Shown here piece by piece: positions 5,090-41,967 of a stretch of DNA of 43,385 bases (its first letter is position 1; the number at the start of each line of letters is the position of its first letter). Position numbers and translations under genes: made by a program. The DNA is from a virus. Its lineage: Duplodnaviria; Heunggongvirae; Uroviricota; Caudoviricetes. The stretch is from IMG/VR virus record IMGVR_UViG_2778261121_000005, positions 1 through 43,385 of that record, one strand, 5' to 3'. Under the pieces are notes generated by a model that was not told the DNA's origin, ran no database searches, and saw nothing but the letters and a program-made list of their open reading frames with translations.

Positions 5090-5817
5090 TATGCAACATT
5101 ACTCCCATGAATCAGGTGTTGTAGTGCTTTAACACCTTCCGCATTGTAGCGGAATGCTTCCACCTGTTTGCTGGAATGCGCAGATTTATCCAGGAAGAAC
5201 TTACCGTACTGCTCAGTTTTGAGGTTGTTTGCGTTAGCAATGCGACCAATCTTGTTGGCCGTTACTCCAAGCTGCTCTGCAACCTCCCCTGCTGAGTAGT
5301 AATGCTCTTCTATTGCTGGAAGAGGTATTGCATTAAAACCAACGATCGGGTTGATTATGCTTGCTGCCGCAGTCTGCTTTGCTTCCGGCGCAAGATTTGG
5401 CATCAGATCGAACAGATTGGTAACAGCTTCAACCGTCATTTTCAGTGTTCGCGCTTGACGATACTCAATAAGTCCACTCGCTGATTTACCGCTTTTAATG
5501 TGCTCTTCTTGCATACTTTCAAGTTGGTCTACCAGTGAGCGGCGAACGGCTTTTGACTCGCGAGCGGCAACTCGCAATGCTTGCTTGATTGACATCTCAA
5601 TGATAACCATCGAAGTTTTGTTCGCTTTTTGCACTACACTTTTTGTGTAGTGCTCTCCATCCAATTCATCTTCAATTTTCTCGATGAATTTGTTATTACG
5701 AACCTCCGGCTCACCGCACTGTCTACGAGCCTGATTTACCATCTCAAGCAGGCGCTGGCTGTCAATGGTTTTATCCGTGACAACGGATCCGATGTTTGCT
5801 ACATTCTTCAAAGTCAT
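5089..5817 (-). CDS. antirepressor-like protein (Rha-like N-terminus, KilA-C/ANT-like C-terminus)
   Basis: 242 aa from internal ATG with SD AAGGAA; C-terminal segment YYSAGEVAEQLGVTANKIGRIANANNL resembles KilAC-type domains. Domain assignment is from memory. Confidence 0.5.
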   Translation of the reverse strand: MTLKNVANIGSVVTDKTIDSQRLLEMVNQARRQCGEPEVRNNKFIEKIEDELDGEHYTKSVVQKANKTSMVIIEMSIKQALRVAARESKAVRRSLVDQLESMQEEHIKSGKSASGLIEYRQARTLKMTVEAVTNLFDLMPNLAPEAKQTAAASIINPIVGFNAIPLPAIEEHYYSAGEVAEQLGVTANKIGRIANANNLKTEQYGKFFLDKSAHSSKQVEAFRYNAEGVKALQHLIHGSNVA

Positions 5818-5905
5818 TAGGCATTCCTTATGTGGTAGTAAGGGTGTGACATAGGCCGCCAGCAGCACACTGGCGGTTTTCTTTTTGCGCCGTCCGGCGC
5901 ACCAA

Positions 5906-6532
5906 TCAATGAATCCATTCCTCGCCGCGAAGTTTTGCCAGCATTGGCTGAGCGTTCTTTACGACAAAATTGTTGGTATCAAGATTCTTCATTTCACGAA
6001 GAAGTGATTTCTTGGTTTCTTCTGACATGTAGCGAGTCTCATATGCAATATCGTAAATCCTTCCTGAAAGCTCAGAACCAATTTGCTTCATTCCTGGGTA
6101 GATGTGTTTGCACATTTGTTGACTCTTCTCCATCCACAATTGTAAGTAGCAGAGATTAACCAGTTCTTCGTCAGTAAACTGTTTTGCAATCGGTGAGCAT
6201 TCTGCCTGCCGATCCAAAATATCCAGCACCCAGCGGCGGAACTCTTTGGCTACCGGAGTGCGAGCAAACATCGCGATTAGGTGGGCACCGCGTAGTGAGA
6301 AAACTCGCACTTTTTTGCGATAATTTCCTGAGGTACTCACTTCGAGTACCTGAGTCATTCCGGCGCTAAACTCATCGTTATACTTGTTATAAATCATTGT
6401 TACTGCACGACTATTTGCGTATTTAAGTGCAGATGCAATATTAGATGATGTAAACCAAACACCATGCATATCACGGGTGGGCACCAACTCAACTCCGTGG
6501 AAGTTGTAATCTGATTTTGCTACAATATTCAT
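5906..6532 (-). CDS. ant: antirepressor-like protein with Bro-N-type N-terminal domain
   Basis: 208 aa from ATG with SD AAGGAAA; N-terminus (NFHGVELVPTRDMHGVWFTSSNIASALKY) resembles Bro-N domains; immediately downstream of the arc-like gene as in P22 immI. Confidence 0.6.
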   Translation of the reverse strand: MNIVAKSDYNFHGVELVPTRDMHGVWFTSSNIASALKYANSRAVTMIYNKYNDEFSAGMTQVLEVSTSGNYRKKVRVFSLRGAHLIAMFARTPVAKEFRRWVLDILDRQAECSPIAKQFTDEELVNLCYLQLWMEKSQQMCKHIYPGMKQIGSELSGRIYDIAYETRYMSEETKKSLLREMKNLDTNNFVVKNAQPMLAKLRGEEWIH

Positions 6533-6605
6533 GTTAGTTTCCTTGCATACGGTTACTGACATAGAGGCCCGGTTTGTGTTCGCGCACTTCCGGGCTTCAC
6601 TATTT

Positions 6606-6779
6606 TTACTGGGCATTAGCTCTTTCCTCTCTCAGGCTTTTAGCCAGTCGCTGCACAATCGCAGAGTTGATAGAAATTCCATCCATTTCAGCAACACGTC
6701 TAATCTCCTCCTTCATTCGCGCTGGCAAACGAAGCTGGAAACTTTGACTTTTACGACCAGTGTAAAGCACATCTTTCAT
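6606..6779 (-). CDS. arc: Arc-like ribbon-helix-helix repressor
   Basis: 57 aa from ATG with SD GGGAGGA; FQLRLPARMKEEIRRVAEMDGISINSAIVQRL matches the RHH beta-strand/helix pattern. Confidence 0.7.
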   Translation of the reverse strand: MKDVLYTGRKSQSFQLRLPARMKEEIRRVAEMDGISINSAIVQRLAKSLREERANAQ

Positions 6780-6890
6780 AAGTAATCCTCCCACAATGAT
6801 ACCAACTTGGTTCTAGAACCAATTTAACACCATTTATTTTGATGTCAAGTTGGTGCTATTGTTTAGCGAACATCTTTACGTTGAGGTCAT

Positions 6891-7211
6891 ATGAGCAAGT
6901 TCCCTAGTCATGAAATGGATAGGTTCAATATCAGGCTTCCTGCAGGAATGCGGGATGCTATAGCTGAACGAGCCAAACGTAACGGCAGATCAATGAACTC
7001 AGAGATTGTTCAGATACTGGAAGATGCCTTGAATGCAGAAAATACACTCGGGGAAATAGCAGATAAAATCAACAGCGTCTCGGTTCCGCTAAATGTTGAT
7101 GCGCTAGTTCAACTTCAAGCCCAGGTTATCGCCATGCAAAAAGAAATACAGGAAAAGTTCAGAGAGCAGAACGAAAAGTTGAGAGAACTGCTAAACAAAA
7201 AACCCACCTGA
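6891..7211 (+). CDS. ribbon-helix-helix (Arc/Mnt/MetJ-type) transcriptional regulator, divergent from arc-ant
   Basis: 106 aa; FNIRLPAGMRDAIAERAKRNGRSMNSEIVQILEDAL is an RHH signature; C-terminal coiled-coil-like tail. Confidence 0.75.
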   Translation: MSKFPSHEMDRFNIRLPAGMRDAIAERAKRNGRSMNSEIVQILEDALNAENTLGEIADKINSVSVPLNVDALVQLQAQVIAMQKEIQEKFREQNEKLRELLNKKPT

Positions 7212-7236
7212 CGGTGGGTTAATTTTTGCCTTTTTT
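7197..7236 (+). terminator. rho-independent terminator (possibly bidirectional)
   Basis: AACCCACC-tgac-GGTGGGTT stem followed by T-rich run; A-run on the other side. Confidence 0.7.
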
Positions 7237-7309
7237 GGACCATATTGACTACTCATAAAATGAGATCAATATTTAATCGCCCAATAACGGGTGCATGTTG
7301 AGGTATATC

Positions 7310-7489
7310 ATGGCGAAAAAACCAGGTGAAAACACAGGAAAAAACGGCGGAATATACCAAGAAGTTGGCCCGCGCGGAGGTAAGAAAGACAATTTTGCCA
7401 CCGTCAAGGACAACGAAAGGCTTCCGCCAACAACAAAGCCAGGTCATGGCTGGGTATTAGATAAGCGAACTCCAGACAGCAAAAAGTAA
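7310..7489 (+). CDS. small hydrophilic Gly/Lys-rich protein (59 aa) with its own promoter and terminator
   Basis: SD GAGGT 5 nt before ATG; upstream TTGACT-N17-AATATT with inverted repeat CTCATAAAATGAG in the spacer; terminator right after the stop. Confidence 0.5.
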   Translation: MAKKPGENTGKNGGIYQEVGPRGGKKDNFATVKDNERLPPTTKPGHGWVLDKRTPDSKK

Positions 7490-7495
7490 TAATCA

Positions 7496-7519
7496 AGCCG
7501 GGTCACTCCGGCTTTTTGA
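7496..7519 (+). terminator. rho-independent terminator
   Basis: AGCCGG-gtcact-CCGGCT followed by TTTTTG. Confidence 0.65.
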
Positions 7520-7868
7520 TATGTCGCTCGCAGAACTCAACAAGCCTGCTCATTAAGTAGCAGTAAGTCTCGTTAGCTCTTCCTGGTTCAACATCAACGC
7601 CGACCCTTGAGCAGATATCGAATGCCATGTGAGCGCACTCATGGGCAATAGTAGATAGTTTGCCATTGAACACACCTATCACATGCAAAACACCATTCTC
7701 GCTGCTCATTGTATGAGACGCTCCGTTGGCATCCGAGTCCTGCACGTCCACGCCAAGTTTTTGATGCAGGCGTTGCCATTCTGGAAAGTCTCTGCAAAAC
7801 ACAATCGTACCGCTCTCAAAGAGCGGTACGAGCATCTTTGGTACGTTTCCAATGTTAACTTTTTTCAT
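7503..7868 (-). CDS. hypothetical protein with HExxH zinc-metallopeptidase-like motif
   Basis: 121 aa from internal ATG; contains IAHECAHMAF (HExxH) with downstream acidic residues. Confidence 0.5.
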   Translation of the reverse strand: MKKVNIGNVPKMLVPLFESGTIVFCRDFPEWQRLHQKLGVDVQDSDANGASHTMSSENGVLHVIGVFNGKLSTIAHECAHMAFDICSRVGVDVEPGRANETYCYLMSRLVEFCERHIKKPE

Positions 7869-7898
7869 GGTATCCTGCACAAAACTAAGGAGGTTGGT

Positions 7899-8126
7899 GT
7901 GAAGCGATGGTTCCTCATAATTACTGTTTTCGCGATCATTTACACTATTTTCCCTGCATTAAAAGCACCAATGCAAATAATTTCACTAGCAATAATTGCA
8001 ATTGGTGCTTTCATTGCAGTATCCGTACTTGTGTTTAAGGTTTTAAAGTTTTTAGTTTGGCTATCAAAAGATGATGGATGCAAAGTTCATCAAGAAAAAG
8101 AAGGCAAAATAACCAAAGTTGACTAA
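7899..8126 (+). CDS. small membrane protein (two predicted TM helices)
   Basis: GTG start 5 nt after a perfect AAGGAGG; hydrophobic stretches WFLIITVFAIIYTIF and IISLAIIAIGAFIAVSVLVF; converges on the ejection-protein gene with a 3-nt stop overlap. Confidence 0.55.
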   Translation: MKRWFLIITVFAIIYTIFPALKAPMQIISLAIIAIGAFIAVSVLVFKVLKFLVWLSKDDGCKVHQEKEGKITKVD

Positions 8127-10246
8127 CTGTCACTAACGAGCCATGTAATAATCCCAGTGCGAGCAATGGTTTTTGCTTCATCTGTTGATAGGGTTTTCTC
8201 CCATCTCTTAAATGCCCCAGATTGCATCAGTTTCCTTTCTATTGCGCGTCTCACTTCTGCTCTGTCTACTGGTGCGTTTTGCAGGCGAAATAACATTGAT
8301 TTAAACTCAGGAGAAGACAGTAGAGCATCAGCAGCCTTTATCCTGCTTGTTTTCCCTGACATCAATGCGGACGTTATCACCCCTGTAGCACCTACACCAG
8401 GAAGACCAGATAAGCTTGTAACACCTTCCGCCGCAGCAGCTTTTGAGGCTATTCCATAAATTTTTGCTAGACTACCCTTTTCCTTCAGAAAGTTATTAAC
8501 TTGCTGATCCACAAGGCTGCTAGCATACTGCTTACCAGTATTGAGTCTATTCATAGCCTTAGCTGCTTGATAAATCGTATCAAGGCGCTTTGATGCATCT
8601 GTGCCAATAGCATCACGGAGAGCCTTCATATTGGCCCCATTGCGTGACATTCCGTTATACCATTTTACAAATCCATCAACCCCTAATTGCTGACCTGGTG
8701 ATTTAGCATAGCTGGTAAATGCTTTATTCATTGAGGTGAGCGCAACTTCCTGCCGCATATCCTTTGGAATTGACTTCATTAATTGCCTAAAGTCACCACC
8801 GTTTCCTTTTGCCATATTAACAACGGCACTTTCAACTTTTGGAATTGCTGATTGCTGAAGTTTTCTACCCAAAACGGTTACGGCATCATCTTCAATGGAT
8901 TTTCGTTTTTTTACCAACTCCTTACCAAGCGTCCATAACTCCCCTGCGCCATATTTTTCTGCGACAGCCTGTTGGTCATCTGTTATGGCTGCATATAACT
9001 TTTTAAGAACACCTGTTTCTTCATCCTTGAATGGGCCAGAGCCTTTGCCAATAGCTTGCCCAACCTGCTTTCTAGCGAGATCTAAACGCCCATACGTTGG
9101 CAAGGTGTTTGGATCAAGTCGGTTCAATGTCCGCTTCATTATTGGAGATAATTCATCAATTCCACCTATGTCATCAGCAAAATCCTCTAAAAAATTCAAT
9201 GTATTGGTTGCCTCAATACGGTCTCTTACTGGAACCTTTTCGGCAATTTTGTTGTAGATGTTATCTGACTGATTTTGTAATGATGAAATGGTTTTATCAA
9301 AATTATCTGCAAGCCTGTCAGAAACCAGTTGCTTATCAAGGTTTCCCCCAAATGAAGTTATCATTTCATCAGCTTTTCTTCCTAATTCAGTAATAAAGCG
9401 CTTATGCGCCTCACTAATCTCTGTTCCAGGGAGACTTGCCACTGCATTATCAAGAGCCCTGACAGCAGGATTATTAGAGATCATTCCTGGAGTGGCATAA
9501 TTTTCCAGTTCTAGCTCACGGATGGCATTTATCGCGTTAAAATCAGGATTAACTTCATCAGCGAAACCTTGAATAGCTCGTTGCCCGCCAATAAATTTAT
9601 TATCCATTGCGCCAGCAGCTTTCTTTAACGTTGCTTTAGATGATTTACTCCCCATCCCTACGGATGAGCGATAAATATCCCCGGCACTATTTTTAATTTT
9701 TCCTGCAATCTTCCCAAGCGCTGGACCAACAATCTCTGCTACAGGGCCAGCCACAGCGCCAATAGCAGCGCCGGAAGCAACATCGCTATTTGTTCCATTG
9801 GCTACAATAGCCCCTTCTCCAGCACCAAGCCCTGCGGCGGCAGCCAGCCTTGCCGCCCCTTTCGGAACCTGAGAAATAATCCCACCACCACTAACAAATG
9901 GCGCTGCTTGTCCAACGAACTCACCAACATCTTGTGCGGTTGATGGTTTTGCCGCTAACTTCTGCTGTAGAGACTGAATTGCGGCTTGCTCTTCTGGTGT
10001 CATATCCTGAAATAGACCAACACCTTTACCAACATCCATCAATCCACTGAGAACGCCATACATAAAACGGTCGAAACCGTTAGCATTATTAACAACATTT
10101 TCCTGTCTGGAATTTTCCTCTGGTGAAACCAAAGGTGATTGCTGCTGCTCTGGTTGGGAATCAAGCACAAAACCATCAGGAAGCTGTGAGTTATCAGGCT
10201 GATTATCGAGAACAAATCCTTCGGGTAAACCTACATCGGTTGCCAT
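8123..10246 (-). CDS. ejection (DNA transfer) protein, P22 gp16-like by synteny
   Basis: 707 aa, last gene of the 7-20-16 type block downstream of gp20-like; Gly/Ala-rich segment; N-terminal tandem LP(E/D)GFVLD(N/S)QP repeats. Confidence 0.6.
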
Positions 10247-31641: not shown

Positions 31642-32301
31642 ATGAAAATGAAATGGTATGAACTGGCTAGATCCAGAATGAAAGAGCTCGGCATAACTCA
31701 AGAGAAGTTAGCTGAAGAGCTTGGTATGACGCAGGGTGGAATTGGTCACTGGTTGCGCGGATCTCGTCATCCATCTCTTGACGAGATTGGTGTGGTGTTT
31801 AAATACCTTGGTATTGATAACGTCTCATTCAACCACGACGGTACATTTTCACCTGCTGGCGAATACTCATCTGCCCCCGTTAAAAAACAATATGAGTACC
31901 CTGTTTTTTCTCATGTTCAGGCCGGGATGTTCTCGCCTGAGCTTAGAACCTTTACCAAAGGTGATGCGGAGAGATGGGTCAGCACAACCAAAAAAGCCAG
32001 TGATTGTGCGTTTTGGCTTGAAGTTGAAGGTAATTCCATGACCGCACCAACAGGATCCAAGCCAAGCTTTCCTGACGGAATGTTAATTCTCGTTGACCCT
32101 GAGCAGGCTGTTGAGCCAGGAGATTTCTGCATAGCCAGACTTGGCGGTGACGAGTTTACCTTCAAGAAACTGATCAGGGATAGCGGTCAGGTGTTCCTAC
32201 AACCACTAAACCCGCAATATCCAATGATCCCATGCAATGATAGCTGTTCCGTAGTAGGGAAAGTTATCGCCAGCCAGTGGCCTGAAGAGACATTTAGTTA
32301 A
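31642..32301 (+). CDS. cI: prophage repressor (CI / P22 C2-like, LexA-type S24 peptidase domain)
   Basis: 219 aa; N-terminal HTH ([25 protein letters not shown]); C-terminal domain resembles P22 C2 ([13 protein letters not shown]...LVDPE...FKKL...PLNPQYPMI). Confidence 0.9.
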
Positions 32302-32535: not shown

Positions 32536-32654
32536 AAACAGATACCAAACGAGATGGGTTTGGCGGTGATGTGAATTGCAGCTGCAACGACAGCAACCAG
32601 AAGATCAGCACCTGGCGCATCACCACCAAAGCCATTTCACATGAGGAAAATATC

Positions 32655-32963
32655 ATGACGGTAATCGTGTACGGAAAATCAACATTTGCAGGAAATGCCA
32701 AAACTCGCCGTCATGAGCGGCGCAGAAAGCTGGCTATCGAGCGTGATGCTATATGCAACATCATCGATTCGATCTTCGGCACAGACAGTGAGGAACCTGT
32801 TCAGGAAGCCCCGAGAAAGCGTTTAAGCATTTCTGAAAAAGCAATATCACTCGGCATCATTAGCAAATCAAATACAGATGCGAATAGCGGAAGCGTTTGT
32901 TTGCCTGAAGTCGCACTGTATGCTGCTGGTTACAGAAGGCAAAAACTAATTACAGCGAGGTAA
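32655..32963 (+). CDS. N-type antiterminator (P22 gp24-like)
   Basis: 102 aa MTVIVYGKSTFAGNAKTRRHERRRKLAIERDAICNIIDSIFG...; arginine-rich motif; SD GAGGAAAA. Confidence 0.85.
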   Translation: MTVIVYGKSTFAGNAKTRRHERRRKLAIERDAICNIIDSIFGTDSEEPVQEAPRKRLSISEKAISLGIISKSNTDANSGSVCLPEVALYAAGYRRQKLITAR

Positions 32964-33371: not shown

Positions 33372-33572
33372 ATGACTACGACTATTGATAAAAATCAATG
33401 GTGTGGACAATTCAAGCGATGCAATGGATGCAAGCTGCAATCGGAATGCATGGTTAAGCCTGAAGAAATGTTTCCTGTAATGGAAGATGGGAAATATGTC
33501 GATAAATGGGCAATACGAACGACGGCAATGATTGCCAGAGAACTTGGTAAACAGAATAACAAGGCTGCCTGA
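33372..33572 (+). CDS. ral: restriction alleviation protein Ral
   Basis: 66 aa MTTTIDKNQWCGQFKRCNGCKLQSECMVKPEEMFPVMEDGKYVDKWAIRTTAMIARELGKQNNKAA, matches lambda Ral as recalled. Confidence 0.85.
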   Translation: MTTTIDKNQWCGQFKRCNGCKLQSECMVKPEEMFPVMEDGKYVDKWAIRTTAMIARELGKQNNKAA

Positions 33573-34413: not shown

Positions 34414-34725
34414 ATGATGATTCTGACTCTGAATGATAAGCGTGAAATATCGCAAATAATCGCAAGTTTTACTGATGAAGATTACGAACGAATCAACAGT
34501 GAAGTTGATCGCCTCTGCAAACGTTGCGACCCAATAAGCGAAATGCTTCGCTCATATAAACCAGATGAACACACTAAGGACGCTATCGACTGGCTGGAAG
34601 ATGATGACTGTAACTATCAGGAAAAAGCCGCTGAATGGTTCTGGGATGCAATAACCGAAAGAGTTAAGGCTGAATATGCCTTCGCAATATTCAAACGCAG
34701 ACACATTTTTGGAGAAGCTGCATGA
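34414..34725 (+). CDS. hypothetical acidic protein (103 aa) upstream of recT
   Basis: Stop overlaps the recT start (ATGA); acidic, Trp-rich. Confidence 0.5.
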   Translation: MMILTLNDKREISQIIASFTDEDYERINSEVDRLCKRCDPISEMLRSYKPDEHTKDAIDWLEDDDCNYQEKAAEWFWDAITERVKAEYAFAIFKRRHIFGEAA

Positions 34726-35633
34726 GCAATATCGTTGAATTCGTTAAACAGCAGGAGCAGTTATTCTGCGGAGCATTGACTGAACAGACGGTGACATGGG
34801 CTAAGGAAAGCCAGTTTGCAATTCAGTATTTCCAGAAAAACGATTACCTGGCTAAAACAGCACTGGCAAATCCAACCAGCGCACAGAACGCCATCATCAA
34901 TGTTGCGGCGATCGGCATCACCTTAAACCCGGCCAGCAAACTGGCTTATCTGGTTCCTCGCGACGGCATGGTGTGCCTTGATATCAGCTATATGGGATTG
35001 CTCCATATTGCAATGGAGTCTGGTGTTATCTCATGGGGTCAGGCAAAACTTGTTCATGCTAACGATACCTATGAGTCAAACGGGCTTGATAAAGCACCAA
35101 CCCATAAATACAACGCCTTCGGTGACCGTGGTGATATCGTTGGCGTTTACTGCACAGTTAAGACGCCAGCAGGTGATTATCTAACGGAAGAGATGAGTCT
35201 GGCTGAAATTGAGGCTGTAAGGAAAACAAGCAAGGCAGCATTCAGCGATAAAGGACCATGGGTAAATCACTGGAATGAGATGGCGCGAAAGACGGTCGTA
35301 AAGCGTGCAAGCAAGTATTGGCCTAAGGCATCACGCCTTGATAGTGCTATTCACGTACTAAACGAAGAAGAAGGCGTGTGGACCGAACCAGTTATGCCGC
35401 ACAAATCAGAGGAAGATATCCGCGAAGATGAACGGAAACGCCAGCAGGAAATAATGGATAAAGCACAACTTCTTTGCGATGAAATGGCTCAGGCAGAAAA
35501 CATGGATGATTTGAAGCGATATTTTGCAGAAGCATATCGCCTGACATCTGGAATGAAATTGCAGCAGAACGTACAAGCCATTTACATAGAATGCAAAGCG
35601 AAACTGGAGGTTGCCAGTGAGCAAACTGTATGA
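34722..35633 (+). CDS. recT: RecT-family single-strand annealing recombinase
   Basis: 303 aa; GPWVNHWNEMARKTVVKRASKYWP matches the conserved RecT segment. Confidence 0.85.
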   Translation: MSNIVEFVKQQEQLFCGALTEQTVTWAKESQFAIQYFQKNDYLAKTALANPTSAQNAIINVAAIGITLNPASKLAYLVPRDGMVCLDISYMGLLHIAMESGVISWGQAKLVHANDTYESNGLDKAPTHKYNAFGDRGDIVGVYCTVKTPAGDYLTEEMSLAEIEAVRKTSKAAFSDKGPWVNHWNEMARKTVVKRASKYWPKASRLDSAIHVLNEEEGVWTEPVMPHKSEEDIREDERKRQQEIMDKAQLLCDEMAQAENMDDLKRYFAEAYRLTSGMKLQQNVQAIYIECKAKLEVASEQTV

Positions 35634-36099
35634 AATTGCCAATGAATACGCAAAATTGATGGATTCAGATTTAGAACCAGAGATGATTGCTGACACAATA
35701 GAAGGCATGGAAGGAGAATTTACCGATAAAATAGAGCAACTTCTTGCCATTATTAAAAATGAATCTGGTTATGCTGAACGCCTCAAGGAAGAGGCAAAGT
35801 CACTGAATGAGCGAGCCGCAGTAATTCAAAATAAGATTGGCAGCATTATGGCGTATATAGCGTCATCGCTTGAAATGGTTGGCAAGAAAAAGATTAGAGC
35901 AGGTATTCACCAGGTAACAATCCGCAAACCGTCAGAAACTGTAGAAATCATCGACTCAAGCGCCCTTCCTCCTGAATACGTTGAGTTTGAAACGACAATT
36001 AAAGCCGACAAACTGGCAATCAAACACCAACTAAAAGCAGGAATAAATATCCCCGGCGCTCAACTCAAAGTTGGGAAACCTTCACTTCTTATCAAATAA
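35611..36099 (+). CDS. hypothetical protein, possibly Siphovirus Gp157-like
   Basis: 162 aa, acidic N-terminal half; family assignment from memory; start overlaps the recT end. Confidence 0.45.
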   Translation: MPVSKLYEIANEYAKLMDSDLEPEMIADTIEGMEGEFTDKIEQLLAIIKNESGYAERLKEEAKSLNERAAVIQNKIGSIMAYIASSLEMVGKKKIRAGIHQVTIRKPSETVEIIDSSALPPEYVEFETTIKADKLAIKHQLKAGINIPGAQLKVGKPSLLIK

Positions 36100-36441: not shown

Positions 36442-36606
36442 ATGAGAGGACTTGCATACAATCCCGGCATTCTTCCGGCAGAAATGATTATTCGCCAACG
36501 CGTAAAGCCAATGCCATCGAGAGAGGAATTGCTTAAAAGAAAGAGTTTCGGTTCTGTTAATGACAACAAATATCTGAATGCGATGTGGCGGAGTGGGAAG
36601 AAATGA
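36442..36606 (+). CDS. hypothetical small protein (54 aa)
   Basis: SD AAAGAGGAA upstream; stop overlaps the next start (ATGA); not in ORF track. Confidence 0.4.
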
Positions 36607-37274
36607 AACAAATGTCACTAATTGAGATGGATGGTTTTCTGAAAGGTAAATGCATCCCAAGTGATTTAAAGGTTAACGAAACAAACGCTGAATATCTGGT
36701 GCGTAAATTTGCTGAAGCGGAGGCCAAGATTTCGGCTCTGTCCGAAGACCACCAGAGAGCGATTGAGTCAATTAAGCAGGCTGATGCGGCTGTTAAGTTG
36801 GCACACGAGAAGTTTTCGGCTCTGGCTGCTGAGAATGCTCGCTACTCAATGTCAGCAGGGCAAGCAGACCAAAGAATGTCGGAGTCGTGCGCAGTTCGGG
36901 AGGCACTTGGGTTTAATCGGTCAGCTGACGACGTGTCACCATCTGACCTGGTAGATAAAATCAAATCTATCATAGCTGAATGTGATGCTATCCGTAGCGC
37001 ACACCCTCAACCACTTGGCCCTGTAATGGATGCTGCAATCGATGCATTTAATGCAGAGGAGATGCCTGAAACCGGAATGCTTAACGCGTACTTCATCCTG
37101 CGTGACAGCATCACGGTGCAAACTCCGTCCACTGACGCCTTCCTGGCTGAAGTGCGGGCGCGTGGTGTGGAGATGTTTGCTGCCAGCCTGAAGGTTGTTG
37201 GTGGTCAAGAGCATCCATATTCATCGTTGGCTCACGAGTTCGCAACCCAGCTTCGCAAAGGAGGCAACCAGTGA
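36603..37274 (+). CDS. hypothetical protein (223 aa)
   Basis: ATG overlapping the upstream stop; coiled-coil-like N-terminal half. Confidence 0.5.
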
Positions 37275-37714
37275 GCAAGATTGATTATCAAAAGCTTCGT
37301 GAAATCGCTGAAAAAACAAAAATTGCTGGTGAAGCACCTGTAATGCCTTTCGATCAGCGAATTAATGCGCTTAACGATTTTATGAAGCACTTTTCGCCAG
37401 ATATCGCGCTGGTATTGTTGGATGAACGGGAAAGAAACCAGCAATACATCAAATCCCGCGACCAGGAGAACGAGGATATTGCGCTAACGGTAGGGAAGTT
37501 GCGCGTTGAGCTTGAGGCAGAAAAACAGCGGGCAAAGGATCTGTTTATGGAAAATGCTCGGCTTAAGTCAGGTATAGCCGGTCTGATACACCTCGGTATT
37601 CGATATGCAGATGTTGATGTCATGAAAATTGCTGGAGATGCCCAGCTTTCTACCCCATGCACTGACAGCATCATAAACAGCATTGCAACAGGCATTCGCA
37701 TCAAAGGAGAGTGA
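37271..37714 (+). CDS. hypothetical protein, possibly Ead/Ea22-like
   Basis: 147 aa beginning [15 protein letters not shown]; coiled-coil middle; typical position in the lambdoid early-left accessory region. Confidence 0.5.
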   Translation: MSKIDYQKLREIAEKTKIAGEAPVMPFDQRINALNDFMKHFSPDIALVLLDERERNQQYIKSRDQENEDIALTVGKLRVELEAEKQRAKDLFMENARLKSGIAGLIHLGIRYADVDVMKIAGDAQLSTPCTDSIINSIATGIRIKGE

Positions 37715-37715
37715 T

Positions 37716-37925
37716 ATGGCTATCGCTGCAAGTTACACCATGCATCTCTATTGTGACTGCCGCCAGTGTACGGAAGGTGTATATCCAGTGCCAGACTTCG
37801 GTGAGTATATCGGTACGTCATGGTCTGGTTGTGCAAAAGAGGCCCGTAAAGACGGGTGGCGAATAAGTAAAGACAAAACACGTGCTTTTGCGCCCGGGCA
37901 TAAAGTTTTGAGGATTAACAAATGA
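37716..37925 (+). CDS. hypothetical Cys-containing small protein (69 aa)
   Basis: Internal ATG after SD AAAGGAGAGTGAT; CDCRQC motif. Confidence 0.45.
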   Translation: MAIAASYTMHLYCDCRQCTEGVYPVPDFGEYIGTSWSGCAKEARKDGWRISKDKTRAFAPGHKVLRINK

Positions 37926-38284
37926 CCACTATTACCAAAGAACGTATCGAATTATTCATTAAAAATCCGCTTGATAACGGGCTTACCCGTGGCGAACAAA
38001 TGGAACTGGCACGAATTGCGCTGGCATCACTGGAAGCCGAACCGGTTGCAGTAAACGACGACATGGCTTACGCATTCCATCACGCATTGTCAGATTCATC
38101 GCTAGGCGCTGATGAAGTAGAGGAAATTAAGGCCGGTTTGCGTGCTGCCTTTGCCAACGTCACTATCCAACCAGAGCCGGTAGTGCCGGATGAAATCGAG
38201 CCAGACGATAGCAATACGTTTGATTATGTTGATGGCTGGAACGCCTGCCGCGCTGCCATGCTTCAGGGTAAGGGAGGTGAGTAA
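37922..38284 (+). CDS. hypothetical protein sharing an N-terminal module with the 39159..39698 gene
   Basis: 120 aa; ITKER...ELARIALASLEAEPV shared with the downstream paralogue at protein and DNA level. Confidence 0.5.
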   Translation: MTTITKERIELFIKNPLDNGLTRGEQMELARIALASLEAEPVAVNDDMAYAFHHALSDSSLGADEVEEIKAGLRAAFANVTIQPEPVVPDEIEPDDSNTFDYVDGWNACRAAMLQGKGGE

Positions 38285-38460
38285 TGCGTGTGGCATTTTT
38301 CGGCTTGTTACCGTACCCGACTCGTTTTTGGGCTTCTGCGCTAATTGCAAAGCCACATGTCCTGATGGCTGACAACATCATCCCGGCACCAAAGCGCCGC
38401 CATACCGGTATTGCAGCGGCACGACGAGCAGCAAAGAGACGCAGGAGAGCAAAGCGATGA
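38284..38460 (+). CDS. hypothetical small, highly basic protein (58 aa)
   Basis: SD GGGAGGTGA; ATG overlaps upstream stop (TAATG); C-terminus RRHTGIAAARRAAKRRRRAKR; not in ORF track. Confidence 0.4.
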   Translation: MRVAFFGLLPYPTRFWASALIAKPHVLMADNIIPAPKRRHTGIAAARRAAKRRRRAKR

Positions 38461-38645
38461 AAAACCGTAAAGCAAAGATTCTGTTAGTTCGTAGAAACGC
38501 TCCTGGCGTCTGGCAGTGGGTGAGACTCAGCAACCGACGGATGGGGTTGATGAAATATTACGGGATGATGGATTGTGGTTTTTGCAAAAAGCCCAGCGCG
38601 GCGCAAAACCGCTGGAAAAACCACTTGCGCACTAAAGGAGAGTGA
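38457..38645 (+). CDS. hypothetical small protein (62 aa)
   Basis: ATGA overlap with the upstream ORF; Cys/Trp-containing. Confidence 0.4.
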   Translation: MKNRKAKILLVRRNAPGVWQWVRLSNRRMGLMKYYGMMDCGFCKKPSAAQNRWKNHLRTKGE

Positions 38646-38646
38646 T

Positions 38647-39162
38647 ATGGCGTTAACACACCGCGAACTCTGTCAGATTGCGTATAAGTTCCTTAAGCGT
38701 AACGGGTTCAAGGTTTGTTTTCATGACCGCTTTATAGCTGTAACCAGTACCGGAGAACAGCCAGATGCTATGGGATTCAGAAATTCAGCATCATGCCTGA
38801 TAGAGGCGAAGTGTTCTCGTGCTGACTTGTTGGCAGATAGAAAAAAGCGTTTTCGTAAAAATCCATCTCTTGGAATGGGCGACTGGCGATTCTTTATTAG
38901 TGAGCCGGGAATTATTTCAGTTGAGGATTTACCACCTGGCTGGGGATTACTTCACGTTGTTAACGGAAGAGTACGGAAAGTACATGGGTGGCCCAAGGGT
39001 AATTGCTGTTGGGGTAATCCTGACGATAAGCCATTTACTGGAAATAAGCAGGTTGAATGCGATTACATGTTATCTGCATTAAGGCGCATGGAGTTGAGAG
39101 GGCACCTTAATGAAATATATGACGGTGTAATTGTTAATAAGAAAGAAGGAAACGCGGCATGA
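38647..39162 (+). CDS. hypothetical protein with PD-(D/E)xK nuclease-like motif
   Basis: 171 aa from ATG after SD AAAGGAGAGTGAT; ...GEQPDAMGF...CLIEAKCSR fits a PD...(D/E)xK core. Confidence 0.5.
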   Translation: MALTHRELCQIAYKFLKRNGFKVCFHDRFIAVTSTGEQPDAMGFRNSASCLIEAKCSRADLLADRKKRFRKNPSLGMGDWRFFISEPGIISVEDLPPGWGLLHVVNGRVRKVHGWPKGNCCWGNPDDKPFTGNKQVECDYMLSALRRMELRGHLNEIYDGVIVNKKEGNAA

Positions 39163-39698
39163 TCACTATTACCAAAGAGCGACTGCTGACAATCAAGCAG
39201 TGGCGCGAAACATACGGACCGGGTAGCAACGTTGTACTGCCAGCAGAAGAAGCGGAAGAACTGGCACGAATTGCTCTGGCATCGCTGGAAGCAGAGCCTG
39301 TAAACCAAACTTACAACTTACCAGAATTAATCGAAGGCATGGAAGTTTCCATTGATGTAAGCACTTGTGATGCTGATTTAGGTAATCGCTATTTCGGCAC
39401 CGTCACCGAGGCGTTAGAACTTGATACAGCCAAGAATGGTTACATCCTCCTGGTTCAGGACGCAGAGCCAAACTTCGATGTAAATGGCAACTCTCCGGTA
39501 ACTCCGGATGGCTGGATAAGCTGTAGTGAGCGAATGCCCCCTCAAGATGATTGGATTTTAATTTATTCAAAGCACGGCGAGTATATGGCAGGACAGGTAC
39601 AAGGGGAATACGTGGAGTTGAGCGACGGCACTTTATCGTGGTTAGGGAACGCCTTGTTCTGGATGCCGCTACCAGAACCGCCGCAGGAGGCGAAATGA
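39159..39698 (+). CDS. hypothetical protein, possibly DUF551-type C-terminus
   Basis: 179 aa; N-terminal module paralogous to 37922..38284; C-terminus (GWISCSERMPPQDDWILIYSKHGEYMAGQ...WMPLPEPP) recalled as DUF551-like. Confidence 0.5.
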   Translation: MITITKERLLTIKQWRETYGPGSNVVLPAEEAEELARIALASLEAEPVNQTYNLPELIEGMEVSIDVSTCDADLGNRYFGTVTEALELDTAKNGYILLVQDAEPNFDVNGNSPVTPDGWISCSERMPPQDDWILIYSKHGEYMAGQVQGEYVELSDGTLSWLGNALFWMPLPEPPQEAK

Positions 39699-39955
39699 TG
39701 GATGTAAAAGAGAAGGTTTTGCAGGTGATGCGTTCCCGGGCTGCCCTGCAAGATAAAGCTCTCGGCGGGGAATATCCATTCAGGATGGCAACCTGGAATC
39801 TGCGGTTGGCAATGGAGAAGGAATTTCCTGATGAAGAATGGCGTTCGGCAGATTTGCGCAAAATTCTTATGGAGCTGGCTAAAGACGGAACAGTATCCAA
39901 AGATACCCATGCCAGCCGGATTGGTCAGGCGGTATGGAGACTGGAGGTGAGGTAA
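39695..39955 (+). CDS. hypothetical protein (86 aa)
   Basis: ATGATG start overlapping the upstream stop; continues the coupled gene chain. Confidence 0.45.
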   Translation: MMDVKEKVLQVMRSRAALQDKALGGEYPFRMATWNLRLAMEKEFPDEEWRSADLRKILMELAKDGTVSKDTHASRIGQAVWRLEVR

Positions 39956-40239
39956 TGGCTAACCTGCAACTTGCCGTTAAAGGTGAATACTTCGATGCCA
40001 TGATTCGCGGAGAGAAAACGGAAGAGTATCGCTTGTGTAATGACTACTGGAATAAGCGAATTATGTTCCGTGAGTATGACCTCCTGATTATCACAAAGGG
40101 ATATCCGAAGCGCGACGATTCCAGCCGTAGAATTGATGTTCCGTATGATGGATATGAAATCAAGACAATCACACATCCCCACTTCGGCGATAAACCGGTA
40201 AAGGTATTCGCGATAAAGGTAAATATCGGCAATAAATAA
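39955..40239 (+). CDS. hypothetical protein, possibly ASCH-domain (PUA-like)
   Basis: 94 aa from ATG after SD GGAGGTGAGG; MIRGEKTEEYR fits the GxKxxExR signature of ASCH domains. Confidence 0.5.
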   Translation: MANLQLAVKGEYFDAMIRGEKTEEYRLCNDYWNKRIMFREYDLLIITKGYPKRDDSSRRIDVPYDGYEIKTITHPHFGDKPVKVFAIKVNIGNK

Positions 40240-40310
40240 CAATCCTCGCACTCGCGGGGATTTCTTTTATCTGAACTCGCTACGGCGAGTTTTGTTTTAT
40301 GGAGATGATT

Positions 40311-40610
40311 ATGGCCTGTTCAACATTCAACCCTCTAACGTTACAGAAATACCAGCCAGACCCTGAAGATTTATGCTCACTGTGTGGCGGAAATCATGGC
40401 AAAGCCGCCATGATCGAATGTAAGGACAAAATCCACATTTGCCTTAATTGCGTTGATGTCCTCGTTGATATCAAAAATGAGAGAGAAGATAAAAAGCGTA
40501 GCGAGGCTGTTCGCGCCTTAGATTCATGGATGCGAGATGGGTATAGTGCTGCGCAAATTTATGACTTAGCAATATCAAAAGGCGAAATACCAGGAGTGCG
40601 CATCGAATAA
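40311..40610 (+). CDS. hypothetical Cys-rich protein (zinc-ribbon-like)
   Basis: 99 aa from ATG with SD GGAG (alternative ATG at 40299); CSLCGG...HICLNC cysteine pairs. Confidence 0.5.
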   Translation: MACSTFNPLTLQKYQPDPEDLCSLCGGNHGKAAMIECKDKIHICLNCVDVLVDIKNEREDKKRSEAVRALDSWMRDGYSAAQIYDLAISKGEIPGVRIE

Positions 40611-40649: not shown

Positions 40650-40676
40650 CAAGCCGCCTGATGGCGGTTTTTTCTT
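40650..40676 (+). terminator. rho-independent terminator upstream of xis
   Basis: CCGCC-tgat-GGCGG followed by TTTTTTCTT. Confidence 0.7.
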
Positions 40677-40700: not shown

Positions 40701-40919
40701 ATGTACTTGACACTTCAGGAGTGGAACGCACGCCAGCGACGCCCAAGAAGCCTTGAAACAGTTCGTCGATGGGTACGCGAGTGCAGGATATTCCCACCAC
40801 CGGTTAAGGATGGAAGAGAGTATCTGTTCCACGAATCAGCAGTAAAGGTTGACTTAAATCGACCAGTAACAGGTAGCCTTTTGAAGAGGATCAGAAATGG
40901 GAAGAAGGCGAAGTCATGA
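40701..40919 (+). CDS. xis: excisionase (lambda Xis)
   Basis: 72 aa MYLTLQEWNARQRRPRSLETVRRWVRECRIFPPPVKDGREYLFHESAVKVDLNRP..., near-identical to lambda Xis as recalled. Confidence 0.95.
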   Translation: MYLTLQEWNARQRRPRSLETVRRWVRECRIFPPPVKDGREYLFHESAVKVDLNRPVTGSLLKRIRNGKKAKS

Positions 40920-41967
40920 GCGCCGGGATTTACCCCCTAACCTTTATATAAGAAACAATGGATATTACTGCTACAGGGACCCAAGGACGGGTAAAGAGTT
41001 TGGATTAGGCCGAGACAGGAGGATAGCAATCACTGAAGCTATACAGGCCAACATTGAGTTATTTTCAGGACACAAGCACAAGCCTCTGACAGCGAGAATC
41101 AACAGTGATAATTCTGTTACGTTACATTCATGGCTTGATCGCTACGAAAAAATCCTCGCCAGCAGAGGAATCAAGCAGAAGACACTCATAAATTACATGA
41201 GCAAAATTAAAGCAATAAGGAGGGGTCTGCCTGATGCTCCACTTGAAAACATCACCACAAAAGAAATTGCGGCAATGCTCAATGGATACATAGACGAGGG
41301 CAAGGCGGCGTCAGCCAAGTTAATCAGATCAACACTGAGCGATGCATTCCGAGAGGCAATAGCTGAAGGCCATATAACAACAAACCCTGTCGCTGCCACT
41401 CGCGCAGCAAAATCAGAGGTAAGGAGATCAAGACTTACGGCTGACGAATACCTGAAAATTTATCAAGCAGCAGAATCATCACCATGTTGGCTCAGACTTG
41501 CAATGGAACTGGCTGTTGTTACCGGGCAGCGAGTTGGTGATTTATGCGAAATGAAGTGGTCTGATATCGTAGATGGATATCTTTATGTCGAGCAAAGCAA
41601 AACAGGCGTAAAAATTGCCATCCCAACAGCATTGCATGTTGATGCTCTCGGGATATCAATGAAGGAAACACTTGATAAATGCAAAGAGATTCTTGGCGGA
41701 GAAACCATAATTGCATCTACTCGTCGTGAACCGCTTTCATCCGGCACAGTATCAAGGTATTTTATGCGCGCACGAAAAGCATCAGGTCTTTCCTTCGAAG
41801 GGGATCCGCCAACCTTTCACGAGTTGCGCAGTTTGTCTGCAAGACTCTATGAGAAGCAGATAAGCGATAAATTTGCTCAACATCTTCTCGGGCATAAGTC
41901 GGACACCATGGCATCACAGTATCGTGATGACAGAGGCAGGGAGTGGGACAAAATTGAAATCAAATAA
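40897..41967 (+). CDS. int: tyrosine integrase (lambda Int)
   Basis: 356 aa, near-identical to lambda Int as recalled (MGRRRSHERRDLPPNLYIRNNGYYCYRDPRTGKEFGLGRDRRIAITEAIQAN...); overlaps xis. Confidence 0.95.
   Translation: MGRRRSHERRDLPPNLYIRNNGYYCYRDPRTGKEFGLGRDRRIAITEAIQANIELFSGHKHKPLTARINSDNSVTLHSWLDRYEKILASRGIKQKTLINYMSKIKAIRRGLPDAPLENITTKEIAAMLNGYIDEGKAASAKLIRSTLSDAFREAIAEGHITTNPVAATRAAKSEVRRSRLTADEYLKIYQAAESSPCWLRLAMELAVVTGQRVGDLCEMKWSDIVDGYLYVEQSKTGVKIAIPTALHVDALGISMKETLDKCKEILGGETIIASTRREPLSSGTVSRYFMRARKASGLSFEGDPPTFHELRSLSARLYEKQISDKFAQHLLGHKSDTMASQYRDDRGREWDKIEIK

Follow-up and report, generated by a model that had tools for sequence, protein, structure and literature searches.

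Exchangeable accessory genes in the early-left operon of a lambdoid prophage, including genes for an MmcB-like nuclease, an ASCH-type protein, and a ClpX-type zinc-finger protein

INTRODUCTION

The part of the early-left (pL) operon that lies between its recombination genes and xis/int, named exo-xis in lambda and the Stx phages and ea in P22, holds genes that are expressed early, non-essential, and mosaic (PMC8614690, PMC3824215, PMC10834534). The phenotypes published for exo-xis genes (ea22, ea8.5, orf60a, orf61, and orf63 of lambda and Phi24B) concern lysogenization and prophage induction and were recorded at the level of the region or upon overexpression (PMC3824215, PMC7093339, PMC10789677). 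Here, the corresponding region was analyzed in a virus sequence of 43,385 nucleotides (nt), IMG/VR record IMGVR_UViG_2778261121_000005, positions 1 to 43,385, which is a lambdoid prophage; this whole stretch is called the window and all positions refer to it. The region under study, 37716-40610 on the plus strand, carries nine open reading frames (ORFs), p1 to p9, and is the distal accessory part of the pL operon. It had been singled out by a sequence-only reading as one translationally coupled operon at a classic site of anti-defense and host-takeover genes.

The region shares with exo-xis and ea the place ahead of xis/int, the close packing of small early genes and the mosaic gene content (PMC8614690, PMC10834534), as well as members of the Ead/Ea22 (PF13935) and DUF551 (PF04448) families. 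It differs from lambda exo-xis in the recombination module on its other side, which is of RecT/Gp157 type and not Exo/Bet. The likeness to lambda exo-xis was judged by position, packing, mosaicism, and family content. Apart from the Ead/Ea22 member, no other Pfam family tied to exo-xis/ea was found in the run of packed genes described below, with only zf-dskA_traR and Phage_P22_Eai checked by name; both of these mark neighboring genes in related loci. Taken together, the region is probably a non-essential mosaic accessory stretch of a lambdoid pL operon, with products that act separately.

RESULTS

Ten tightly packed genes precede a separate gene next to xis/int

Inside the region, the offset of a gene start from the preceding stop took one of three values. 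It was -4 nt for p2 (37922-38284; ATGA), p4 (38457-38645), p6 (39159-39698), and p7 (39695-39955), -1 nt for p3 (38284-38460; TAATG) and p8 (39955-40239), and +1 nt for p1 (37716-37925; TGAtATG) and p5 (38647-39162). All eight starts from p1 to p8 are preceded, 7 to 14 nt upstream and within the upstream gene, by a Shine-Dalgarno sequence of the GGAG/AGGAG type. The packing continues to the left of the region, where p0a (36585-37274) and p0b (37271-37714) overlap at GTGA and the stop of p0b stands 1 nt before p1. With tight packing defined as an overlap or a gap of at most 1 nt and a Shine-Dalgarno sequence in the upstream gene, the chain consists of ten consecutive genes at 36585-40239, eight of them inside the region. 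The distances from p8 to p9 (71 nt) and from p9 to xis (90 nt) fall outside this definition and p9 is a separate unit.

The start of p9 (40311-40610) is thus 71 nt past p8, or 59 nt if the alternative ATG at 40299 is used. The spacer holds two tandem hairpins resembling intrinsic terminators (40241-40262 and 40273-40292), each followed by a U-run. The predicted RNA fold of 40241-40292 had an energy of -27.3 kcal/mol (z -5.1) and none of 200 shuffled sequences was equally stable. A further terminator-like hairpin from the same scan lies between p9 and xis (40651-40670). Of the nine ORFs that the sequence-only reading had described as coupled, the eight at 37716-40239 keep this description with their -4, -1, and +1 nt junctions and the ninth, Cys-rich one does not, being set off by the 71-nt spacer with its two hairpins; the chain also begins two genes earlier than the proposed 37716, at 36585. 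Ribosomes are presumed to move from gene to gene along the chain by translational coupling. Since the genes are packed stop to start with internal ribosome-binding sites, they most likely share one pL transcript. Two promoter-like sites were found compared to 7.4 expected, none of them at a gene start and none before the chain or p9.

The genes are exchanged one by one

Co-occurrence was counted in the 80 best-scoring IMG/VR loci, all at least 99% identical in p5, using contigs with at least 3 kb of flanking sequence (60 informative downstream of p5 and 63 upstream). Downstream, p8 accompanied this nearly invariant p5 in 14 of 60 contigs, p7 in 9/60, p6 in 8/60, and p9 in 3/60. Upstream, p3 and p4 were the commonest neighbors (23/63 and 22/63), followed by p1 (5/63) and p2 (4/63). 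Where p8 did occur, 16 different spacings from p5 were observed, ranging from 499 to 1946 nt, which shows that different genes lie between the two. The pairs p7/p8 and p5/p6 also separated freely.

The ends of BLASTN matches clustered at gene junctions (37691-37714, 37922-37944, 38270-38275, 38456-38476, 38625-38634, 39159-39181, 39659-39703, 39950-39966, and 40226-40313), with one additional cluster at the domain boundary of p6 (39290-39304). A 24-nt direct repeat, CGCAxxAAAGGAGAGTGATATGGC (…AAAGGAGAGTGATATGGC), stands before both p1 and p5 (repeat D2, 37697-37720 and 38628-38651, 92% identical) and spans the last codons of the upstream gene (KGE*), the ribosome-binding site, and the first codons of the next gene (MA). 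It coincides with the commonest breakpoints and is therefore a likely recombination linker.

Pieces of the region were found in 539 phage records, and among complete Escherichia coli genomes, 3644 of 5426 had them; the whole 2.9 kb was present in no record. The same genes occur in differing combinations in Stx phages, P22-like and lambda-like prophages, and P1-like phage-plasmids. The closest match to p1-p8 comes from E. coli plasmids of about 97 kb (O111 and others), in one of which, L001, positions 6001-8504 correspond to 37716-40227 of the window with 98.8% DNA identity. L001 also carries a homolog of p0b (5556-5999, 99% protein identity). The plasmids bear phd/doc, humD, and genes for the Pol III theta subunit and a late promoter-activating protein, and are apparently P1-like phage-plasmids. 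The block p1-p8 is an accessory module that a lambdoid prophage and such elements have exchanged recently.

These comparisons show that each gene, and in p2 and p6 each domain, is an independent cassette swapped between phages at conserved junctions, and that the array is no fixed system. The counts are incompatible with an obligatory pair of nuclease and ASCH protein. The sequence-only reading had suggested that the two act in combination and had proposed comparing gene content across related prophages to see which genes travel together; that comparison found genes exchanged singly, p8 in a minority of contigs at 16 distances from p5, and breakpoints at the gene boundaries.

p5 is a predicted nuclease of the MmcB-like branch

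The 171-amino-acid (aa) protein p5 (PHROG 631/9263) belongs to no Pfam family (E ≤ 0.1) and had no NCBIfam or direct PDB sequence match. Its own family is large, with 3304 clusters at 50% identity (E ≤ 0.001). In alignments reaching down to 34% identity, D40 was invariant and E37, E53, and K55 were at least 90% conserved, which identifies the QPD...IEAKC core as a conserved catalytic motif. The PD...(D/E)xK core noticed in the sequence alone (GEQPD...LIEAKC) is thereby confirmed. The same reading had named non-conserved PD/EAK residues as evidence that would count against it, and the alignment found them conserved.

The modeled structure has the alpha/beta core of restriction-endonuclease-like folds and resembles SPO1766 (3DNX) over its full length, by structure as well as by profile. 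In the MmcB-like family, SPO1766 is a member of solved structure. A profile built from distant relatives of p5 reached 3DNX by sequence (E 4.9e-5), aligned over D...ExK-SR-DF, and several neighbors of p5 in viral structure databases are already named 'MmcB-like DNA repair protein'. Among 40 distant relatives, six weakly matched PF06319 (best E 2.9e-4) and six matched Hjc. Hence p5 is a PD-(D/E)xK nuclease of the MmcB-like branch that stands formally outside PF06319. Compared to the MmcB-like proteins (PF06319, 3DNX, and Caulobacter MmcB), it is phage-borne in a pL operon and not a chromosomal SOS gene, and it carries an additional conserved segment, GMGDWRF / GWGLL.

The predicted activity is most likely that of a Mg2+-dependent endonuclease specific for DNA structure or damage. 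In Caulobacter, MmcB is described as an SOS-regulated endonuclease of PD-(D/E)xK type that gives protection from mitomycin C (PMC9578287). By analogy, p5 might process damaged or branched phage DNA, the role that we prefer, tentatively and at less than even confidence; such a role would match expression that begins as soon as DNA damage has induced the prophage.

The long members of the p5 family examined contained fusions to TniB, dATP/dGTP pyrophosphohydrolase, and DUF551, and none to ASCH. No recombination gene was present in the 6-kb flank of p5 in 47 of 55 loci; the others had genes of RecT or Bet/Exo type. Distant relatives also occur on phage-like contigs, among small ORFs arranged in long runs. 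In one 59-kb contig of this kind (L086; 166-447 and 6001-6507), about 20 small ORFs stand in a row, among them the relative and genes for a DUF3850 protein, a resolvase, an integrase, an RNA ligase, and a YqaJ exonuclease. DUF3850 is a family related to ASCH.

p8 is an ASCH-type protein without the YqfB Thr nucleophile

The 94-aa p8 (PHROG 625) adopts a PUA-like beta-barrel fold in which the best structural matches were all ASCH proteins, and its close homologs are named 'ASCH domain-containing protein' in RefSeq. The GxKxxExR signature that had suggested an ASCH-like protein holds up, reading G19-E-K21-T-E23-E-Y-R26 with G19, K21, E23/E24, and R26 invariant in 28 homologs. A sequence search of the PDB with the family profile retrieved no ASCH chain, and the assignment therefore rests on fold and motif. 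In YqfB-type ac4C amidohydrolases the catalytic residues are Lys21, Thr24, Arg26, and Glu74 (PMC9599836). With the octapeptides in register, p8 keeps K21 and R26 and has an invariant Glu at position 24 in place of Thr24, so that YqfB chemistry is not expected. In comparison to ASCH proteins (PF04266), namely, YqfB, ZmASCH, the Enterococcus faecalis protein 3IUW, and PH0355, p8 has the same fold and signature and is minimal in length, with a Pfam score below the gathering value. Its predicted function is most likely to bind either nucleic acid or a modified base.

Searches of the PDB with the single sequences of p1, p5, p6, and p8 returned nothing meaningful.

p9 carries a ClpX-type zinc finger and stays beside xis/int

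The Cys-rich 99-aa p9 (PHROG 3680) had been read as zinc-ribbon-like, and its zinc-finger character was corroborated in the form of an N-terminal C4 finger of ClpX type. The family comprises 36 clusters from Enterobacteriaceae. Its N-terminal half is nearly invariant (YQPDPEDLCSLCGGN-x-GKAAMIE-x-KDKIHIC-xx-CVDLL) and its C-terminal half is variable. The cysteines C22, C25, C44, and C47 are at least 90% conserved, nearly invariant, with the spacing CxxC-x18-CxxC. Alignment of the family with residues 1-60 of E. coli ClpX by hhalign gave a probability of 90.7% (E 1.2e-6) over 38 columns. Sub-threshold matches to zf-C4_ClpX were found in 16 of 23 family members (best E 1.3e-3), and an NCBIfam scan of p9 gave weak ClpX matches only. 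The ClpX N-domain (PF06689; 2DS5-2DS8, 1OVX) has the identical cysteine spacing and the common motif [IV]-x-I-C-x-x-C-V-D-[LV]; p9 differs from it in being free-standing, without the AAA+ module, and in having its own conserved lead-in YQPDPEDL and the variable C-terminal half.

Prophages of E. coli, Enterobacter, and Klebsiella have p9 homologs at a position one or two genes ahead of the excisionase gene. The adjacent genes vary in type, from HTH_17 with Phage_integrase, through DUF1233 with an Arm-DNA-bind_2 integrase, to a 436-aa integrase in an Stx2a phage. Therefore, p9 is a separate single-gene cassette that is kept beside xis/int whatever the integrase type. It may act through protein-protein contacts made by the finger. 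A more specific idea, and quite an unlikely one, casts p9 as a free-standing mimic of the zinc-binding N-terminal domain of ClpX, serving as a decoy. Made early, it would dimerize with the ClpX N-domain or capture the adaptor and substrate tails that this domain normally recognizes, and would alter ClpXP turnover of phage and host regulators during the decisions on lysis, lysogeny, and excision.

Lambda Ea8.5, a hybrid of homeodomain and zinc finger (PDB 2M7A), is likewise a small zinc-finger protein, and its gene is also the last of the accessory genes ahead of xis (PMC8614690); in p9, the finger is N-terminal and of ClpX type. Homology of the two was rejected, as 2M7A and its relatives were absent from PDB searches with p9 (E ≤ 10) and with the family profile (E ≤ 1). 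The analogy is one of position only.

Coding evidence and the small proteins of the chain

Ratios of nonsynonymous to synonymous polymorphism (pN/pS) among related loci supported coding for p1 (0.03), p5 (0.04), p9 (0.06), and p8 (0.12), and gave weaker support for p7 (0.38). Substitutions in p2 and p4 were too sparse for the ratio, and p6 had no ungapped full-length variants.

The basic 58-aa ORF p3 (PHROG 13831) is present as described in the sequence-only reading, RRHTGIAAARRAAKRRRRAKR, and has the weakest coding status of the set. Its pN/pS was 0.94, constraint was absent in every frame, and no Pfam or NCBIfam match was found, as would be seen if p3 were a non-functional spacer that stays open by chance. 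Yet the ORF was intact in 12 of 12 variants, with an ATG or GTG start at one unchanged position, preceded by a strong GGGAGG site, one variant had an in-frame deletion of 21 nt (7 codons), the basic C-terminal half (PAPKRRHTGIAAARRAAK+R+R) was kept in a copy with a diverged N-terminal half, and p3 forms a PHROG family that is annotated in RefSeq. We hold p3 to be probably a real, weakly constrained gene, and the spacer explanation to be a lesser but still credible one. The conserved arginine-rich stretch at 38380-38460 reads PKRRHTGIAAARRAAKRRRRAKR. It resembles the arginine-rich motifs by which N proteins bind RNA; in the N protein of this prophage, the sequence is TRRHERRRK.

The proteins p1 (69 aa, Cys-containing; PHROG 926, E 9e-37), p4 (62 aa; PHROG 1380, E 1e-40), and p7 (86 aa; PHROG 2814, E 9e-53; 'eaa protein' in RefSeq) matched only PHROG families of unknown function, and p1 had no Pfam or PDB match. 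A PDB match of p7 to TPR-like repeats was the sum of four insignificant repeat matches and was judged spurious. A weak zf-C2H2_jaz match of p4 was rejected as evidence of a C2H2 zinc finger, only a single His following its CxxC. p4 usually accompanies p3 and, when present, directly precedes p5, with identical spacing in 28 loci. In PHROG 9263 (230 aa), positions 1-61 match p4 and 62-230 match p5, and the p5 copy on plasmid L001 is marked 'frameshifted' in RefSeq; some phages therefore seem to have p4 and p5 as a fusion or as a single annotated gene.

The 120-aa p2 (PHROGs 60, 660, and 3323) and the 179-aa p6 have in common an N-terminal module of about 45 aa, MxTITKER...ELARIALASLEAEPV, with 57% identity over residues 1-48 (BLASTP, E 1e-8). 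The DNA repeats D1 and D3 underlie this module (38003-38046 versus 39258-39301 and 37922-37944 versus 39159-39181, 89-91% identical). In p6, the module is joined to a C-terminal DUF551 domain (PF04448, 41.7 bits against a cutoff of 22, residues 118-176), described as a portable domain that some Ea22 variants and YfdS also contain (PMC10834534, PMC4776307). Homology to p6 ended at the end of the module (39290-39304) in 49 loci, which have another C-terminal domain beyond it.

Prophage context

The two genes that extend the chain upstream encode a 229-aa hypothetical protein without a Pfam or PADLOC match (p0a) and a 147-aa Ead/Ea22-like protein (p0b; PF13935, 78.8 bits, cutoff 27). Farther upstream on the plus strand, a library scan of the early-left ORFs identified the genes for a CI-type repressor (31642-32301) and N (32571-32963; PF25694), a full-length anti-restriction gene, ral (33372-33572; PF11058, 162.5 bits), and the genes for RecT (34722-35633; PF03837) and Gp157 (35611-36099; PF05565). 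By Pfam, ral, about 4 kb upstream of the region, is the sole recognizable anti-defense gene of the pL operon. The recombination module at 34414-36099 consists of RecT and Gp157, and no exonuclease partner of Exo, YqaJ, or RecE type was recognized among the early-left ORFs scanned.

On the other side, the excisionase gene (40701-40919) and the tyrosine integrase gene (40897-41967), which marks the prophage end, directly follow the region on the plus strand, in agreement with the position just upstream of xis/int that had been read from the sequence. Both were identified as ORFs whose DNA is 98.8% identical to sequences annotated in RefSeq as excisionase and tyrosine recombinase, respectively. 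The Xis and Int sequences are presumably of lambda type. An ORF beyond the integrase gene (past 41967) is chromosomal.

The late region (1-28000, minus strand) contains large ORFs of 732, 471, 417, and 685 aa, whose sizes and order suggest the portal, terminase, coat, and tailspike arrangement of P22-like phages. If so, the prophage would combine a P22-like virion module with a lambda-type integration module.

DISCUSSION

The single exchange of genes at conserved junctions, the position between recombination genes and xis/int, and the Ead/Ea22 and DUF551 members make a mosaic accessory stretch of the exo-xis/ea kind the likely explanation of the region. On this explanation, one N-antiterminated pL transcript would cover the ten genes at 36585-40239, and coupled ribosomes would translate it within the first minutes following infection or induction. 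The two hairpins would close the run, the separate p9 cassette and xis would follow, and each product would act on its own.

Several points weigh against this account or parts of it. The co-occurrence sample is biased to close relatives and phylogenetically unbalanced, and many of its contigs are fragments. That the chain is transcribed from pL, that antitermination carries through the hairpins, and that translation is coupled are all conclusions from sequence. The PF06319 model did not match p5 itself, and the structure model of p5 is of moderate confidence only (pLDDT 72.9, with the C-terminus below 60); the repair role proposed for p5 draws on analogy with one bacterial protein. For p8, the match to Pfam ASCH (PF04266, residues 6-48) scored 15.3 bits, below the gathering score of 21.2, and for p9 the match to zf-C4_ClpX (PF06689) scored 15.7 bits against a cutoff of 27.

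The genes could instead constitute a single co-operating anti-defense or host-takeover system, in which p5 and p8, perhaps with the basic mini-protein p3, act on nucleic acids of the host or of a competitor. The tight coupling in the window and the presence of ral in the same operon would suit such a system, as would the nucleic acid-related folds of both p5 and p8 and the retention of p0b-p8 as a unit, with 98.8% identity, on P1-like plasmids. It is nevertheless very unlikely, because p8 accompanies nearly identical p5 genes in fewer than a quarter of the contigs and at distances from 499 to 1946 nt, because p7/p8 and p5/p6 part freely and breakpoints fall at every gene junction, and because no p5-ASCH fusion occurred among the long family members examined. 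For single genes of the chain, anti-defense roles are possible, ral being in the same operon, and have candidate status. A prophage defense or superinfection exclusion function that guards the lysogen is still less probable. Variable prophage regions often carry defense genes (PMC9122126), a nuclease and a reader of modified bases are typical parts of defense systems, and p9 is flanked by terminator-like hairpins in the manner of a moron; however, PADLOC defense models gave no match (E ≤ 0.01) for ten proteins (p1-p9 and p0a), the chain lies downstream of N in the pL operon, which is repressed in a lysogen, and the few promoter-like sites, below the expected number, precede neither the chain nor p9.

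The patchy distribution of p5 might also arise from its own mobility as a selfish homing-type endonuclease. Near-identical p5 genes do occur in very different flanks, behind a conserved 24-nt junction sequence, but all neighboring genes behave as cassettes and the pattern is thus not specific to p5. With more than 3000 diverged clusters, strong purifying selection, and a closest fold of repair type that is not a known homing enzyme, this origin is hardly credible. More weight is due to a role of the genes as modulators of the lysis-lysogeny decision and prophage induction, like the exo-xis genes of lambda and Phi24B, which we nonetheless consider unlikely. In its favor are the same genomic position, the Ead/Ea22 family gene near the head of the chain, the published phenotypes in lysogenization and induction, and the retention of p9 by xis/int across differing excisionase and integrase types. 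Against it, those phenotypes are region-level or come from overexpression, the chain beyond p0b lacks matches to the other Pfam families tied to the region (with the two checked by name), and the intact catalytic motif of p5 under strong purifying selection points to an enzyme.

All nine proteins are already represented in PHROGs, close homologs are named in RefSeq as hypothetical, ASCH, DUF551, or 'eaa' proteins, and the type of region is well described. Rfam gave no match and NCBIfam no family match beyond the weak ClpX one of p9. Neither the exo-xis modeling paper nor a screen of phage accessory genes (bioRxiv 10.1101/2023.04.06.535777) mentions these families. What is new is a sharper annotation of three widespread phage proteins, namely, of PHROG 631 as MmcB-like, of PHROG 625 as non-YqfB ASCH, and of PHROG 3680 as a protein with a ClpX-type finger and a xis-proximal position.

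For the accessory stretch as a mosaic of separately acting products, the consequence is practical. Variable early-left stretches of this kind are common in the prophages of pathogenic E. coli and their genes are mostly unexplained; as the genes are exchanged singly, they should be tested one at a time and not as one system. Repair of damaged prophage DNA by the nuclease following SOS induction, or interference of p9 with ClpXP, would, if real, bear on the efficiency with which Stx-type prophages are induced.

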